From: Gammaproteobacteria bacterium
GTDB lineage: Bacteria; Pseudomonadota; Gammaproteobacteria; JASBUN01
Reading direction: 5' to 3'
Assembly: GCA_030147845.1 (NCBI GenBank)
Contig: JASBUN010000031.1
Location: 13,472 to 77,471 of the forward strand
Length of the DNA: 64,000 nt
Shown one piece after another: positions 28,007-33,732 of the stretch. The notes beneath the pieces are model-generated. The model saw nothing but the letters and a program-made list of their open reading frames with translations. It was not told where the DNA came from and made no database searches. Within the stretch, counting starts at the first letter, position 1. Every line of letters starts with the position of its first letter. Made by a program: the position numbers and the translations under genes.

Positions 28007-28048
28007 TTGATTTAGATCAATTTTGACTTCGCACTTACGGCGTAGACT
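28007..28048 (+). promoter_or_regulatory. FNR/ANR box with class II promoter geometry upstream of the cox operon
   Basis: Perfect TTGAT-TTAG-ATCAA (28007-28020). TAGACT at 28043-48 is where a -10 would be if the box is centred at -41.5. Confidence 0.8.
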
Positions 28049-28322: not shown

Positions 28323-29552
28323 ATGGTCGCAATGATAAGTAAAAGAAAGTTGTTGGGGTTGGCGGCAACCTTTGGATTGGCCGGCTTAATACCTTCTCTA
28401 GCGATGGCCAAGAATCCGTTCGACTTTCAGACACCCGTGACCCCCATTGCCAAAGAAACACTCTATATACATAACCTCTTTCTAATCATCATCGCCGTAA
28501 TATTTACCCTGTGCCTAGGTATCCTGTTCTATTCACTAGTCATGCACCGCAAAAGTCGCGGCCACAAAAGCGCCTTATTTACCAAGCCGACGACGACCAA
28601 ACAATGGATATTCACTATCATTCCGTTTCTGGCGTTGGCGTTTATCGACTATGTTGTGCTCGGCATCCCGGCGTTTCACTCGATATTGGCGCTGGCGGAC
28701 ACGAGCCATGCCGACATGGTGGTCAAGGTAACCGCCAGTCAATGGAAATGGCAGTACGAATACCCCAAAGACGGAATCAAGTTCACCAGCACCCTATCCA
28801 CACCGCAAAGCCAAATCTCCGGTAAGCAGCCGCCGGATAAACATTTTCTACTTGAAGTCGATCATCCGCTGGTATTGCCCACCAACAAAAAAATTCGCAT
28901 CGTGTTGGCATCAAACGACGTCATTCATGCTTTCTGGGTGCCCGCATTCGGAATCAAGCAAGACGCCGTTCCGGGCTATCTACGCAACACTTGGGTAGAC
29001 ATCAAAAAGCCCGGCGTCTATCGAGGTCAGTGTGCGGAACTGTGCGGTGTCGGACATGCCTTTATGCCTATAGTGGTGATTGCAAAGCCCGAAGCGGAGT
29101 TCACCGCGTGGCTAGCCCAACAAAAAATCAAGCAGGCACGAGCTGCCACGGCAGAAAATAAAAACTTTTCCAAAAGAGAATTGCTAGCCCGAGGCAAGTC
29201 GGTATTCAAAGCCAACTGCGCCGCCTGCCACCAACTCAACGGCATGGGAATTCCCGGCACTTTTCCGCCACTAGCAGAAGGGAAAGCGTTCTCTGCATCG
29301 CCGCAAATGCTCGAGCAGTTGCGCAAACGCGGTTTCTATAAGAACGGAAAAATAGTTATGGGTCCGGTCAAAGATCATGTGGATATTGTCTTACACGGCA
29401 TTCACGGTACGGCAATGCCGGCTTTCGTCTCACAACTAAGCGATGCTGACATTGCAGCGCTGGTCACTTACGAGCGAAACGATTTTGGTAACCATACCGG
29501 TGACGTGCTGCAACCGTCACAGGTCAAGAGCATCCGTTCAACGAAGAAATAG
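28323..29552 (+). CDS. coxB: Cytochrome c oxidase subunit II with fused C-terminal cytochrome c (caa3-type)
   Basis: QWKWQYEY, DVIHAFWVP, CuA motif CAELCGVGHAFMP, then CAACH...AMPAF. Alternative start at 28332. Confidence 0.95.
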   Translation: MVAMISKRKLLGLAATFGLAGLIPSLAMAKNPFDFQTPVTPIAKETLYIHNLFLIIIAVIFTLCLGILFYSLVMHRKSRGHKSALFTKPTTTKQWIFTIIPFLALAFIDYVVLGIPAFHSILALADTSHADMVVKVTASQWKWQYEYPKDGIKFTSTLSTPQSQISGKQPPDKHFLLEVDHPLVLPTNKKIRIVLASNDVIHAFWVPAFGIKQDAVPGYLRNTWVDIKKPGVYRGQCAELCGVGHAFMPIVVIAKPEAEFTAWLAQQKIKQARAATAENKNFSKRELLARGKSVFKANCAACHQLNGMGIPGTFPPLAEGKAFSASPQMLEQLRKRGFYKNGKIVMGPVKDHVDIVLHGIHGTAMPAFVSQLSDADIAALVTYERNDFGNHTGDVLQPSQVKSIRSTKK

Positions 29553-29581
29553 CGTCGGACATACTGCTGGAGGATTGGTAA

Positions 29582-31174
29582 ATGAGTGCTGTTATCACCA
29601 GTGACGAACACAGCCATGACCGCCCTCGCGGGATAACTCGCTGGCTATACGCTACCAATCACAAGGACATCGGCCTGATGTATCTGTTGTTCGGCCTGAC
29701 GATGTTCCTCGTCGGTGGGCTGCTCGCCATGCTCATCCGCATGGAATTGTTCCAGCCCGGCATGCACATCATGCAACCGGAGCTATACAACCAAATCATC
29801 ACCGTGCACGGTTTGGTGATGGTATTCGCCGCGCTAATGCCGGTCACCGCCGGGCTGGCAAACTATATGATACCGATCATGATCGGCGCACCCGACATGG
29901 CGCTGCCACGCCTCAACAATTGGGGCTTCTGGTTGTTGCCACCCGCCGCCATACTGTTGGTCATGCCCTGGGTCCTGGAATTGTTCGGCATCGGCGGAGG
30001 AACGATCGACACCGGCTGGACCATGTATGCGCCGTTATCGGTGCAATCCGGTATGGGAATGGATTTCGCCCTTTTTGCCGTATTTCTTCTTGGCGTTTCA
30101 TCAACCATGGCGTCGATCAATATTATTGTCACCATCTTCAACATGCGCGCACCGGGTATGACAATGCTTCGGGTTCCGTTGTTCGCCTGGAGCTGGCTCA
30201 TTACCGCGCTATTGCTTATCGCCGTTTTCCCGGCCTTGATCGCCGGCGCGGTCATGCTGTTGACCGATCGACATTTCGGCACGCACTTCTTCAATGCTGC
30301 CGGTGGTGGCGACCCGATACTGTGGGAGCATCTATTTTGGTTCTTTGGACATCCAGAAGTGTATATTCTACTCCTGCCTACGGCCGGAATTCTGCCGCAT
30401 ATTTTCTCGACTTTCGCCCGTAAACCCATTTTCGGTTATAAGGCGCAGGTCTATTCGTTTTGTGTCACCGGCTTCCTGTCGATTATCGTCTGGGCACATC
30501 ACATGTTTACCTCGGGGATGCCCGCCTCTGCGAATATCTATTTCATGTTCAGCACCATGGCTATATCGGTGCCGGTAGCCGTTATGTTTTTCTGCTGGAT
30601 CGCGACGATCTGGCGCGGCTCCATGACGTTCGAGACGCCAATGTTGTTTGCACTCGGGTACGTCGTACTCTTCGGGATCGGTGGGCTGACCGGTCTGGTT
30701 CTTTCTGACGCGGTCGCCGATCAGCAATATCACAATTCCTACTTTCTGGTCGCACATTTTCACTTTGCCCTGTTCGGCGGACCGGTTATGGGCGTAATCG
30801 CGGCTGCTTACTATTATCTACCTAAAATTACCGGGCGCATGTATAGCGAACGGTTAGGAAAATGGCATTTTTGGTTGACTATAATCGGCTTTAACGTCAC
30901 CTTTTTGCCGCAGTTTTTCCTCGGCATTGCCGGTATGCCGCGCCGCATTCCAGACTACGCACTGCAATTCAGTAATCTGAACATGTTGTCGAGCATAGGC
31001 GCGTTCGTGCTCGGCGCATCGCAGCTTCTGTTCGTCATCAACGTGATCAAAACATCGATCGGTCACGGCGCCAAAGCCGACGCGCAGGTCTGGGATGGCG
31101 CCAGCGGACTCGAGTTTACGCTGTCTTCGCCGCCACCATATCACTCCTTTGCAAAGGCCGATGGCAACAGGTAG
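29582..31174 (+). CDS. coxA: Heme-copper oxidase subunit I, A1-type motifs but K-channel residues substituted
   Basis: TNHKDIG, HGLVM, DMALPRLNN, GHPEVY, WAHHMF, AHFH, GMPRR. Confidence 0.95.
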   Translation: MSAVITSDEHSHDRPRGITRWLYATNHKDIGLMYLLFGLTMFLVGGLLAMLIRMELFQPGMHIMQPELYNQIITVHGLVMVFAALMPVTAGLANYMIPIMIGAPDMALPRLNNWGFWLLPPAAILLVMPWVLELFGIGGGTIDTGWTMYAPLSVQSGMGMDFALFAVFLLGVSSTMASINIIVTIFNMRAPGMTMLRVPLFAWSWLITALLLIAVFPALIAGAVMLLTDRHFGTHFFNAAGGGDPILWEHLFWFFGHPEVYILLLPTAGILPHIFSTFARKPIFGYKAQVYSFCVTGFLSIIVWAHHMFTSGMPASANIYFMFSTMAISVPVAVMFFCWIATIWRGSMTFETPMLFALGYVVLFGIGGLTGLVLSDAVADQQYHNSYFLVAHFHFALFGGPVMGVIAAAYYYLPKITGRMYSERLGKWHFWLTIIGFNVTFLPQFFLGIAGMPRRIPDYALQFSNLNMLSSIGAFVLGASQLLFVINVIKTSIGHGAKADAQVWDGASGLEFTLSSPPPYHSFAKADGNR

Positions 31175-31340
31175 TTCGGCGCAACCGTCCTATGCACGCT
31201 ATGGCGAAACCAACGGCACTGACTGGATCGAACGATGAAGTGGGTCGTGGACCATTCGAGTTGCGCGGCTACAGCTACCCGAACGGGTCGCATATGAATT
31301 TTGAATCCTGGTGCAGATCAGCGAGAAAGGGGAATCGAGC

Positions 31341-32195
31341 GTGAACATGGGAGATGTCCAACGTGGTTACTATACACCGGACCAAAGTCCATATCCGATC
31401 ATACTCGCGGCGAGCCTGTTTCTCATGGCGCTCGGTGCGGTACTCGAAGTAAACGGTCATGATGTTGGCAGTTGGTTTCTTCTGGCGGGCGGGGCCTCAT
31501 TAATTTTTGTGCTGTTCGGGTGGTTCGGCAAAGTAATCGGCGAAAGTCGGCGCGGGCTTTACTTCGCCAAGGAGGACCGTTCATTCCGCATGGGGATGGC
31601 TTGGCTCATTGCATCCGAGGTGGTGTTCTTCGCCAGCCTCTTCGGTGTTCTGTTCTACGAACGCAATATCGCCGTACCGTGGCTGGCTTCACTCGACCCC
31701 AACTATACCCCGTGGTTGCATTTCACCAGTGCATGGCCCACGTTCGGCCCCGCAGGGAAGCCTTTCGTAGCCATGAAGCCATGGGGCATTCCGGCACTCA
31801 ACACTGCAATTTTGCTGAGTTCAGGTGCGACCGTAACGTGGGCCCATTGGGGCCTACGTAAGAACAAACCGCTGTGGACCAAGGTTGGATTGTTCTTGAC
31901 CGTAGCGCTGGGCATTATCTTCCTGTTCATGCAAGTGCACGAATTTCATGATGCTTACACGCATCTGGGTCTGACGCTCAAATCCGGCGTCTACGGTGCT
32001 ACGTTTTTTATTTTGACCGGCTTTCATGGTCTTCACGTGACGTTTGGCGTGATTATGTTGACGGTCGTGTTCAGCCGGGCGTTAAAAGGGCATTTTACCG
32101 CCGACAACCACTTCGCTTTCGAGGCAGTCAGCTGGTATTGGCATTTCGTCGATATCGTCTGGTTGTTGCTGTTCGTATTCGTATATTGGCTGTAG
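31341..32195 (+). CDS. coxC: Cytochrome c oxidase subunit III
   Basis: IASEVVFF, NTAILLSSG.TVTWAH, TGFHGLHV, WYWHFVD. GTG start after AAAGGGGA. Confidence 0.93.
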   Translation: MNMGDVQRGYYTPDQSPYPIILAASLFLMALGAVLEVNGHDVGSWFLLAGGASLIFVLFGWFGKVIGESRRGLYFAKEDRSFRMGMAWLIASEVVFFASLFGVLFYERNIAVPWLASLDPNYTPWLHFTSAWPTFGPAGKPFVAMKPWGIPALNTAILLSSGATVTWAHWGLRKNKPLWTKVGLFLTVALGIIFLFMQVHEFHDAYTHLGLTLKSGVYGATFFILTGFHGLHVTFGVIMLTVVFSRALKGHFTADNHFAFEAVSWYWHFVDIVWLLLFVFVYWL

Positions 32196-32366
32196 ACAAC
32201 CGGCCGACTGTTACCTATCAGGCGTGTCGTCGCCGCACGCTCGCGCGCGATTTGAGTTGCGTGCGGTTCGATCTCGTGTTTGCGTGAACTCTCCGCAGGC
32301 CTAGCGCTTCACGCGCGCGGATTCCAGCCTTGGCGTCACCGGTCACGCGCAACAGTCGATTGAGCC

Positions 32367-33275
32367 ATGTCTACCGCATCTGAATACATCCTATACCTGA
32401 GCCCGTGGGAATTTTCTCCCACGGTCCTGGTTGTCACGCTGACAACCACGACGGTTTATCTGCGTGGGTTATGGGTTGGGCGCAGCGCCGGCATTAGCGC
32501 CAATCTATGGCGCTGCGCGGGCTTTTTGACGGGTGTATTGCTGATCTACGTGTCCTTACAGACCTACGTCGACTATCTCTCACAACACATGTTCTGGGTA
32601 CACCGGCTGCAACATCTCGTACTGCATCATCTAGGCCCATTTCTCATCGCGCTTGCCGCACCCGATCGAGTCTTGGCGCGCGGCACGCCCGCGTGGTTGT
32701 TGCGGCCGTTGCGCGCGCTGTTCAAAGCAGCGCCCATACGGCTCACGTACCGGCTGATCCAAAATCCCGTGATCGCCTGCGTGCTGTTCGTCGGCTTGAT
32801 CTACGTGTGGTTGACGCCAGCGATTCATTTCGACGCCATGCTGAGTATATTCTGGTACAAGGTCATGAATTGGAGCATGGTAATCGATGGGCTATTGTTT
32901 TGGTGGCTGATAGTGGGCCCGAAAAGCCGGTCGTCGAGAATAAGCGCCACCTATGGCACACGCTTGGTCATGCTTCTGGCCGTCACCTTGCCACAAATCG
33001 CTATCGGCGCCTATATAACGTTCCACAGTACGATCCTATATGGCTCCTACAATATTTGCGGTCGCGCCTGGCCTATATCGGCACTGGTCGACCAGCAACT
33101 AGGTGGTCTAAATACATGGATACCGCCCGCAATGATGAGTGTGGTTGGATTCGCTATCGTCGTGTCACAGTGGACCAAGGCTGAGCAAGCGCGCGAATAC
33201 GGGCCGCCGTTGCCCGTCTTTGCCGGTCCAAGCATAGTTGCGAAATTTGCGCGAGATAGCGCGACGTCGATTTAG
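32367..33275 (+). CDS. ctaG: Cytochrome c oxidase assembly factor (Caa3_CtaG family)
   Basis: HMFWVHRLQHLVLHHLGP, W..P, DQQLGGL..WIP motifs; multi-TM. Confidence 0.85.
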   Translation: MSTASEYILYLSPWEFSPTVLVVTLTTTTVYLRGLWVGRSAGISANLWRCAGFLTGVLLIYVSLQTYVDYLSQHMFWVHRLQHLVLHHLGPFLIALAAPDRVLARGTPAWLLRPLRALFKAAPIRLTYRLIQNPVIACVLFVGLIYVWLTPAIHFDAMLSIFWYKVMNWSMVIDGLLFWWLIVGPKSRSSRISATYGTRLVMLLAVTLPQIAIGAYITFHSTILYGSYNICGRAWPISALVDQQLGGLNTWIPPAMMSVVGFAIVVSQWTKAEQAREYGPPLPVFAGPSIVAKFARDSATSI

Positions 33276-33289
33276 CGCGCAAGTTGGCT

Positions 33290-33732
33290 GCGGAAAAGCC
33301 GAACAACTCGGTTGGACCGAAATAGGGATCTACAAGCGCACCGACGATCGCCTCAATCCCGGGCATCATCTCTCGCAACAATATACCTTCGATCTCGGCG
33401 TCCGTTTGATAGCGACGCGCTGATTCAATCATTTCCGCCACCGTTTGCTGAAGTTCCTTCGCGTCACTTATTCCGACACGCACAGCACCAGCTTCCGTTT
33501 TGTGCGGAAGCTGCGCCGACTCGAGTTTAGCCACAAGCGGAAATTCAATCGGACACTCCGACATGCTTTGAACTTCGGCAAGCGGTACCAATATCTCGCG
33601 TACCACGGGAATATCGTACTGGCGTAGAATCGCCTTCGACTGGTATTCCCCTAACGTGAGTTTGTTCGCCGGTAGTTGCAAATCGGCTTTGGGAATTTGG
33701 CGGTCAAGCTTGGCATCCCGCACCGCGCGCAC
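33290..33732 (-). pseudogene. Fragment of an acetate--CoA ligase (ADP-forming) ATP-grasp domain
   Basis: EYQSKAILRQYDIP, FPLVAK, PHKTEAGAV, E.IVG...DPYFGP. Similarity stops at ..FGF and the N-terminal CoA-binding domains are absent. Confidence 0.75.

Follow-up and report, generated by a model that had tools for sequence, protein, structure and literature searches.

The subject of this report is a cytochrome c oxidase operon (positions 28323 to 33275) in a 64,000-nucleotide stretch of contig JASBUN010000031.1, hereafter the window, from a gammaproteobacterial genome (assembly GCA_030147845.1). Its subunit I lacks the lysine of the K proton pathway, and the enzyme is probably a working, O2-reducing oxidase of the A1 type, one of a conserved, monophyletic K-less subfamily that derives from the ordinary aa3 oxidases of gamma- and betaproteobacteria. 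On balance, members of this clade would appear to turn over O2 with no ionisable residue in the K pathway, by way of either a lysine-free water wire or a D channel that carries all eight protons; both fit equally well. Lys362 of the K pathway (Rhodobacter sphaeroides numbering, used throughout for reference positions) is among the most studied residues in bioenergetics, and either route, if true, would overturn the view of the helix VIII lysine as indispensable in A-family enzymes. The four genes of the operon, each an intact open reading frame (ORF), are as follows.

28323..29552, + strand: coxB, subunit II of the caa3 type, 409 amino acids, carrying CuA and, at its C-terminus, a cytochrome c domain; ORF intact
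29582..31174, + strand: coxA, subunit I, 530 amino acids, A1 type (GHPEVY); ORF intact
31311..32195, + strand: coxC, subunit III, 294 amino acids, PF00510 at 182.8 bits; ORF intact
32367..33275, + strand: ctaG, Caa3_CtaG-type copper insertion/assembly factor, 302 amino acids, PF09678 at 178.6 bits; ORF intact

By its predicted products the operon encodes a caa3-type, A-family cytochrome c oxidase. CoxB contains the Pfam domains COX2, COX2_TM and Cytochrom_C, also matches TIGR02866, and keeps the CuA motif CAELCGVGHAFM; its cytochrome c domain (PF00034 and PF13442, residues 288-383, haem c motif CAACH) is fused to the C-terminus of subunit II, as the caa3 type requires. CoxA matched PF00115 with 521 bits and TIGR02891 with 689 bits (cut-off 670.75). 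The six His ligands of haem a, haem a3 and CuB that mark the haem-copper A family (equivalents of H102, H284, H333, H334, H419 and H421) are present in the query and in 111/111 members of the clade described below. In the Pereira/Sousa classification, the A1 subtype is recognised by the Glu of the XGHPEV motif and by the residues of the D and K channels. The E286 equivalent at the end of the D channel was found in 111/111 sequences, as was each of D132, N121, N139, N207, S200 and S201; at S142, 89 sequences have Gly and 22 have Ser. The cross-link Tyr of helix VI (GHPEVY) is kept in 110/111, the residue rather than the covalent bond itself being what the sequences record. The K-channel features are different, with Met or Leu at K362, Val or Leu at T359 and Gln at E101 of subunit II, and judged on these residues the enzyme appears to fit A1 in every respect except the K channel.

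Residue equivalences were taken from phmmer alignments of CoxA against all PDB chains. The overall top match was 7jro_a (E 7.6e-158), and the best proteobacterial matches had E-values of 3e-151 (R. sphaeroides 1m56_A) and 1e-146; between query residue 165 and about residue 480 the alignment to 1m56_A is gapless, so that the R. sphaeroides number equals the query number plus 27. Helix VIII reads MFSTMAISVPVAVMFFCW against MMATMVIAVPTGIKIFSW in R. sphaeroides, which places Met335 (ATG, 30584-86) at K362, Val332 (30575-77) at T359 and Cys338 at S365. In helix VI (GHPEVYILLLPTAGILPH against GHPEVYIIVLPAFGIVSH) Pro272 stands at S299, and the Mg site reads YHNSYF against YHDTYY, with H411-D412 corresponding to His384-Asn385 (30731-36). 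Further equivalents in the window CoxA are His273 (H300), Gln289 (M316), Ser329 (A356), Asp376 (Q403) and Phe445 (H472). In subunit II, the E101 Glu of LEIAWT (R. sphaeroides) or IEVIWT (Paracoccus denitrificans) aligns to Gln94 in KQWIFT (CAA, 28602-04), and the entrance His (H96) is likewise absent. Kept in CoxA are the six His ligands, D132, N121, N139, N207, S200, S201, E286, Y288, R481 and R482. The alignments bear out a first-pass annotation of the window, made from the letters alone, which had named the replacements at K362, T359, S299, D412 and E101 of subunit II and had read the metal ligands, GHPEVY, the D channel, the Arg pair and CuA as intact, with none of the four ORFs frameshifted; its codon coordinates agree with the starts of the ORFs. 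It had also allowed for a Lys at a shifted position, of which there is no sign near helix VIII: none occurs in query residues ~310-345, and neither Lys nor another ionisable residue was found at a shifted position in the query or in 20 clade-specific CoxA columns, 0/20 of which hold Lys, Arg or Glu.

The replacements are not peculiar to the window. A comparison of 111 K-less with 88 canonical CoxA rows gave, at position 362, Leu in 103, Met in 7 and Val in 1 of the K-less rows against Lys in all 88 canonical ones, and at 359 Leu (68) or Val (39) against Thr (88); position 299 is Pro (95) or Ser (13) against Ser (88). Other positions are characteristic as well: 365 is Cys in 111 (Asn in the 88 canonical rows), 356 is Ser in 111 (Ala in 79), 316 is Gln in 110 (Met in 88) and 300 is His in 98 (variable in canonical rows), and the K-less rows further carry Ala at 315 (108), Ala at 360 (100), Phe at 363 (107) and Leu at 291 (107). 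In subunit II, the E101 site is Gln in 93/121 CoxB homologues, usually followed by Trp, and Glu in 18/121; the entrance His was found in 0/93 of the Gln-type proteins at either candidate position, against 15/18 of the Glu-type, and is replaced in the clade by Thr/Ser or Gly/Ala. In the aligned sequences, then, all ionisable residues of the K pathway are gone and another conserved polar lining stands in their place. The claim of the first-pass annotation that the whole K channel had been lost thus holds for its ionisable groups and is overstated as to the channel itself, which new conserved polar residues at 316 and 365 would line.

The placement of these residues rests on residue equivalence with R. 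sphaeroides together with PMC10341450, the available part of which lists Y288, T359, K362 and S365, with H96 and E101 of subunit II, as the K-channel residues of that enzyme, and describes channel width measured by molecular dynamics as the distances M316-K362, P315-E101 and P315-S365. Because of these width pairs, the invariant Gln316 and Cys365 can be placed on the channel wall, with Gln316 facing position 362; the invariant Ser356 and the mostly conserved His300 are taken to lie on that wall as well.

A second group of changes lies on the periplasmic side, near the Mg site, where 78 K-less rows have Asn at position 412, 28 have His and 5 have Gly against Asp in 85 canonical rows, position 403 is Asp in 111 against Ile, Val or Leu, and position 472 is Phe in 108 against His in 87. 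The pairing of the D412 replacement with a new Asp403, plus Phe for H472, suggests that the Mg-site carboxylate has shifted. A separate Mg-site variant was seen in the canonical caa3 CoxA of the same genome (L001, G000:C5:48685-50025, - strand), which has Gln for His411 (YQDTYF), a residue common to 21/88 of the canonical gamma- and betaproteobacterial CoxA.

Phylogenetic reconstruction placed the K-less enzymes in a single group. In a FastTree tree of 200 CoxA rows, the 111 K-less rows fell on one side of a single branch (support 100, 1 change), and in an IQ-TREE tree of 76 rows with outgroups the 39 K-less rows formed one clade (support 100), which grouped with the canonical gamma- and betaproteobacterial A1 oxidases (support 99). 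Outside that group were an alphaproteobacterial canonical enzyme, Rhodococcus ctaD, Ralstonia coxN and two alphaproteobacterial lineages with Gln in place of the lysine. Because the clade branches with the gamma/beta A1 enzymes, the loss of the K-channel lysine is secondary, within ordinary proteobacterial aa3 oxidases. The K-less stem has a length of 0.3 in the IQ-TREE tree, and the terminal branch of the query, at 0.2, is not unusually long.

Homologues that share the replacements, a search for which the first-pass annotation had proposed, do exist: 110 of the best 120 database matches to CoxA carry them, alongside the 93 CoxB with Gln. The clade is nonetheless rare among species representatives, with 2/400 in a class sample and 1/401, the source genome itself, in a phylum sample, in which three best candidates per genome at E <= 1e-220 were scored and very distant members may escape. 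Incidence was 1/5 in the order of the source genome (five genomes, all of one family, four of which gave no match to the operon), 2/4 in the order of genome G214 and 5/301 in the family of a Rhodoferax metagenome-assembled genome. A genome-contig search returned three K-less loci among 80, L005, L006 and L007, the last from that Rhodoferax sp. genome. Searching plasmids by tblastn with cluster P0055 (1714 member sequences) and the window CoxA gave no clade member (best 63% identity), although outgroups were gained, and the best 80 loci of a metagenome-contig search were all canonical by motif, at 56-61% identity, with no new K-less locus; these loci were used only as controls for the promoter-box count given below.

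Several lines of evidence indicate that the catalytic subunit is under strong purifying constraint and is not decaying. Between L006 and L007, the only pair with unsaturated synonymous sites (other pairs had dS > 1.2 or were not computable), coxA gave a nonsynonymous rate (dN) of 0.026 and a synonymous rate (dS) of 0.867, for an omega of 0.03; coxB gave 0.10, and other coxA pairs had omega <= 0.2 where dS could be computed. At the strain level, two soil-metagenome runs yielded contigs that cover the operon from end to end, gapless and with 35 and 40 differences, and a mine-drainage contig, ~93% identical, has a 3-nt insertion as its only indel and no frameshift. No RNA data set was among the sequencing runs listed as carrying the operon. 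Among the soil-contig differences that were classified (32/35 for X2 and 32/40 for X3), synonymous and nonsynonymous changes numbered 10 and 0 in coxA, 3 and 0 in coxC, 4 and 2 in coxB, and 3 and 8 in ctaG. Three of the changes in the window ctaG (32367-33275) fall in the adjacent codons 51-53.

It is thus very improbable that the operon is a decaying or inactive paralogue, a possibility raised by its redundancy beside three other haem-copper oxidases, among them a complete canonical caa3 operon, and by the excess of nonsynonymous changes in ctaG between near-identical strains. All four ORFs are intact, coxA and coxC show no nonsynonymous change among the listed strain differences, contigs from three studies, two of soil and one of mine drainage, hold the operon free of frameshifts, and the replacement residues of the window are those fixed throughout the clade, on a terminal branch of ordinary length. 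The incipient pseudogene that the first-pass annotation had considered therefore finds no support in the strongly constrained catalytic subunit, and its suggestion that coordinated changes across two subunits reflect selection rather than decay is upheld by the single clade, its fixed residues and the omega and strain counts for coxA.

Gene content points to a functional oxidase as well. The source genome (G000; 3.67 Mb, 93.8% complete) encodes four haem-copper oxidases: the K-less caa3, a canonical Lys-bearing caa3 (coxB-coxA-cox11-coxC-SURF1-SCO1-ctaB), a cbb3 adjoining the latter, and a bo3-like quinol oxidase, so that the second, canonical enzyme for which the first-pass annotation had asked is indeed present. 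Six other genomes, all Comamonadaceae-type, yielded no A-family oxidase besides the K-less enzyme: G785 (with L007), G787 (with L006), G965, G1043, G876 and G1063, of which G965 is a single 4.94-Mb contig. The second match in each of the six has a ccoN-like PF00115 score, and NCBIfam confirms ccoN in G785, G787 and G965; the third haem-copper protein of G785 and G965, the two genomes checked in this respect, is NorB-like, with the motif HLWVEG, which we take to be a NorB-type signature. The L007 operon runs from a coxB that lacks the cytochrome c domain through coxA, cox11, coxC and SURF1 to CtaA. A working O2 reductase is the simplest reading, because the enzyme is there the sole aa3 of an aerobe and lies in a full assembly operon.

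Upstream of coxB the window carries the only perfect TTGAT-N4-ATCAA match within its 64 kb:

28007..28020, + strand: FNR/ANR/Dnr-type box TTGATTTAGATCAA, perfect match, 310 bp before the coxB ATG

Ten K-less loci had upstream DNA; the box is perfect in four (the window, G403, L007 and G965), has one mismatch in two (G214 and G1063) and is absent from four (L005, L006, G1043 and G876). Among 123 canonical operons, one had a perfect box and seven had one with a single mismatch. The perfect boxes outside the window lie at L203 6435-6448, L007 5005-5018 and, as the reverse complement, L239 2975-2988. The window, G403 and G214 are closely related to one another, and L007 is closely related to G965, so the box represents about two independent lineages. 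A -10-like hexamer stands at class II spacing in the window (TAGACT), G403 and G214, a geometry from which we infer a class II promoter for the window box; in L007, 57 bp separate the centre of the box from the coxB ATG downstream. Read in this way, the K-less operon would probably be under an FNR-family regulator that senses O2 or NO. The recurrence of the box hints at service under low or changing O2, which is unusual for aa3-type oxidases. The same sequence is also the Dnr/NNR-type site.

That last point is one of few in favour of a changed substrate, an enzyme that mainly reduces nitric oxide (NO) or hydrogen peroxide (H2O2), which was suggested in the first-pass annotation and which we regard as quite improbable. 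Retention of peroxidase activity by K-channel mutants and under K-channel blockers, described in the available part of PMC9961948, would be compatible with such a role, and the source genome has a copper nitrite reductase gene, nirK, together with no NorB-type or other haem-copper NO reductase that a PF00115 search could find (at 93.8% completeness). The active site argues otherwise, with the cross-link Tyr in 110/111 sequences and the three CuB His ligands kept, as does gene content, since all six genomes with a sole A-family oxidase appear to have a cbb3, G785 and G965 carry a NorB-like protein as well, and the L007 operon holds the full set of haem a and copper assembly genes.

For O2 reduction, the difficulty lies in the protons taken up during reduction of the active site, which in models of the catalytic cycle are supplied by the K pathway. 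Two routes can be envisaged for the protons that canonically pass by way of Lys362 while haem a3 and CuB are reduced. In the first, they would move along a lysine-free water chain held by Gln at position 101 of subunit II, Cys365, Gln316, Ser356 and Tyr288; the polar group would in effect have been transplanted from helix VIII to helix VII (K362 to Leu with M316 to Gln), and the path would in principle have a parallel in the K-analogue of B-family oxidases, which has no Lys. In the second, the D channel and Glu286 alone would supply them. That Gln316, Cys365, Ser356 and the subunit II Gln are invariant suggests that the former K-channel region still matters.

A third arrangement, in which reductive-phase protons enter from the periplasmic side by way of a remodelled Mg-site and exit region, as in cNOR, is unlikely. 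An enzyme of this kind would have reduced coupling, would work chiefly to scavenge O2 or to take up electrons as a sink, and would gain less charge from each O2. In its favour, the changes at 412, 403 and 472 lie close together around the Mg site, on the periplasmic side, the K entrance has no ionisable residue left, and FNR-type boxes in several members would suit a low-O2 role. Yet all 111 sequences retain the full D channel and Glu286, as befits a pumping enzyme, six genomes hold no other A-family oxidase, and we know of no uptake path from the P side in any A-family enzyme.

Other observations weigh against the view of a working O2 reductase with protons supplied by either of the first two routes. 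Positions 359 and 362 are both hydrophobic, an apolar stretch that would hinder an easy water wire, and an engineered K362M mutant of R. sphaeroides is almost inactive. Activity without the lysine is argued from conservation and gene content, and the orientation of Gln316, Cys365 and Ser356 would follow only if residue equivalence with R. sphaeroides extends to side-chain position. Draft or metagenome assemblies make up five of the six genomes with a sole A-family oxidase (G785, G787, G1043, G876 and G1063), and in these a canonical oxidase could have been missed. The constraint estimates have limits of their own: dS is saturated for most pairs compared, the strain comparison covers 32/35 and 32/40 differences, and the 8 nonsynonymous to 3 synonymous changes in ctaG may indicate weaker constraint on the assembly factor.

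The relationship of the K-less clade to known oxidases was considered in several ways. It is ~58-61% identical to the canonical gamma- and betaproteobacterial enzymes and shares with the canonical A1 aa3 and caa3 oxidases (R. sphaeroides 1M56, P. denitrificans 1AR1/1QLE) subunits I-III, the six His ligands, GHPEVY, the D channel, the Arg pair and CuA. It differs from them in the replacement of K362, T359, S299 (mostly) and E101 and H96 of subunit II, in the invariant Gln316, Cys365, Ser356 and Asp403, and in Asn, His or Gly at the Mg ligand D412. The engineered K362M and subunit II E101 mutants of R. sphaeroides resemble the window enzyme, with its Met at 362 and Gln in subunit II, but each is a single change in a canonical channel, whereas in the clade about a dozen channel-wall positions have changed jointly and were then conserved.

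Natural A-family oxidases without the lysine have been described before. According to the part available of a preprint (bioRxiv 10.1101/2020.03.01.968255), acidophiles that oxidise Fe(II), and some relatives including Thioclava, have a hydrophobic residue for the K-channel Lys of COX1 and a replaced entrance Glu in COX2; these oxidases are of A2 type, form the deepest-branching bacterial A-family group and are linked with caa3_CtaG. Several independent losses of the K channel in archaea are inferred in the portion seen of PMC8239418. As described there, the rus-operon oxidases of Acidithiobacillus and Acidiferrobacter, together with Thioclava, share with the window clade the hydrophobic residue, the replaced Glu and a retained D channel, and their Caa3_CtaG linkage recurs in the window operon. 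The clade itself is neither of A2 type nor deepest-branching, having GHPEVY and joining the gamma/beta A1 oxidases with a support of 99, although it is by the published description that rus-type enzymes are set apart here, the IQ-TREE data set having held no rus-type reference sequence. On those flanks of the window operon that were examined, the only part of this genome checked for it, no rus context (rusticyanin, cyc2, cyc1) was found, and the other K-less operons examined contain only cox, assembly or unrelated genes.

A full-text literature search for K-channel-less A-family enzymes returned only the work of Degli Esposti. Rhodoferax, Betaproteobacteria, Burkholderiales and Sulfuricella are all absent from the main text of the preprint, and no description of the K-less A1 clade was found in full-text searches, although the supplementary trees S9-S11 of that work may include members. 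The general phenomenon is thus already in print, and the undescribed subfamily proposed in the first-pass annotation must be narrowed to this gamma/beta A1 lineage, which is probably undescribed.

The plasmid-borne oxidases of Rhizobium etli pC, Sulfitobacter and Pseudosulfitobacter, with Gln for K362, are also naturally Lys-less A-family enzymes. They differ from the window clade, at 37-42% identity, in forming a separate, long-branched lineage, in having the polar Gln at position 362 itself and in carrying Ile or Leu at 316. The CoxA of R. etli CIAT 652 plasmid pC (L202 429-2342) has IPAGTQIFCW, with Cys at 365, Ala at 359 and Asn at D132, and the roseobacter plasmids (L197 3869-6436 and L198 3860-6424; Sulfitobacter, Pseudosulfitobacter) encode 855-aa CoxA-CoxC fusions with IPTGIQLFAF.

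More distant members of the superfamily were also compared. In B-family oxidases, the K-analogue path consists of neutral polar side chains and water only. They have neither the D channel nor Glu286 and carry Ser, Thr or Tyr at the helix VIII positions, whereas the clade has a complete D channel and is hydrophobic at 359 and 362. Membership of the window CoxA in the B family was rejected, the SoxB-type model NF041075 giving 82.8 bits against a cut-off of 700. The Lys-free path of Thermus thermophilus ba3 remains of interest as a possible analogy, as far as the part available of PMC11214002 describes it. The same part states that the NO reductases of the superfamily (cNOR, qNOR, eNOR, sNOR and others) lack the cross-link Tyr and have altered active-site ligands, and that cNOR and qNOR have no CuA; the clade was excluded from this class by the presence of the Tyr, the three CuB His ligands and CuA.

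If the proposed reading of a lysine-free A1 oxidase is correct, the clade offers a natural system for asking why these oxidases keep two channels, and a natural counter-example open to purification, measurement and structure solution. At 58-61% identity to canonical aa3 it is closer to the model enzymes than are the acidophile oxidases, and reverse mutations and direct comparison with R. sphaeroides would be feasible.

The operons of the clade vary in composition. There is no cox11 in the window operon, and its CtaG scored 43 bits against the NCBIfam caa3_CtaG equivalog TIGR02737 (cut-off 279). In L005, cox11 lies between coxA and coxC; in G214 a coxB with a cytochrome c domain is followed by coxA and coxC, and then by a Fur-family gene. 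CoxB of L007, G965 and G1063 has no cytochrome c domain. Neither Caa3_CtaG nor the cytochrome c fusion is therefore a trait of the clade, and the link to Caa3_CtaG drawn in the first-pass annotation does not extend beyond the window, other members using Cox11 (with SURF1 and CtaA).

The window operon has as its neighbours, on the flanks examined, thrS, a GntR regulator and the remnant of an ATP-grasp gene, the last of these overlapping the final 120 bases of ctaG:

33154..33732, - strand: truncated ATP-grasp_5 ORF, PF13549, profile positions 6-134 of 221

Synteny with three genomes of the same family ends at the 5' end of thrS (27398), and in comparison with these three no clean insertion, and hence no exact boundary, could be drawn. 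The ATP-grasp_5 ORF probably represents what is left of a gene at the border of a variable region, where it would mark a rearrangement. As an extra oxidase in a non-syntenic region, the operon was probably acquired laterally by the source genome.

A few minor observations concern other loci. The Fur-family regulator gene of G214 lies directly 3' of coxC (L115 12235-12774). In the source genome, nirK scored 334.7 bits and two genes for the RuBisCO large subunit were present (nirK and RuBisCO loci: G000:C52:105851-106759, G000:C20:85808-86734 and G000:C16:313012-313938), which, with no NorB-type protein found by PF00115, suggests that the organism is an autotroph that produces NO and has no classical NO reductase. 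The genome that holds L005 (G786) also encodes an A-like subunit I in which Trp stands for Glu286, in the motif FAHPWVY (L214, G786:C4:226620-227957).

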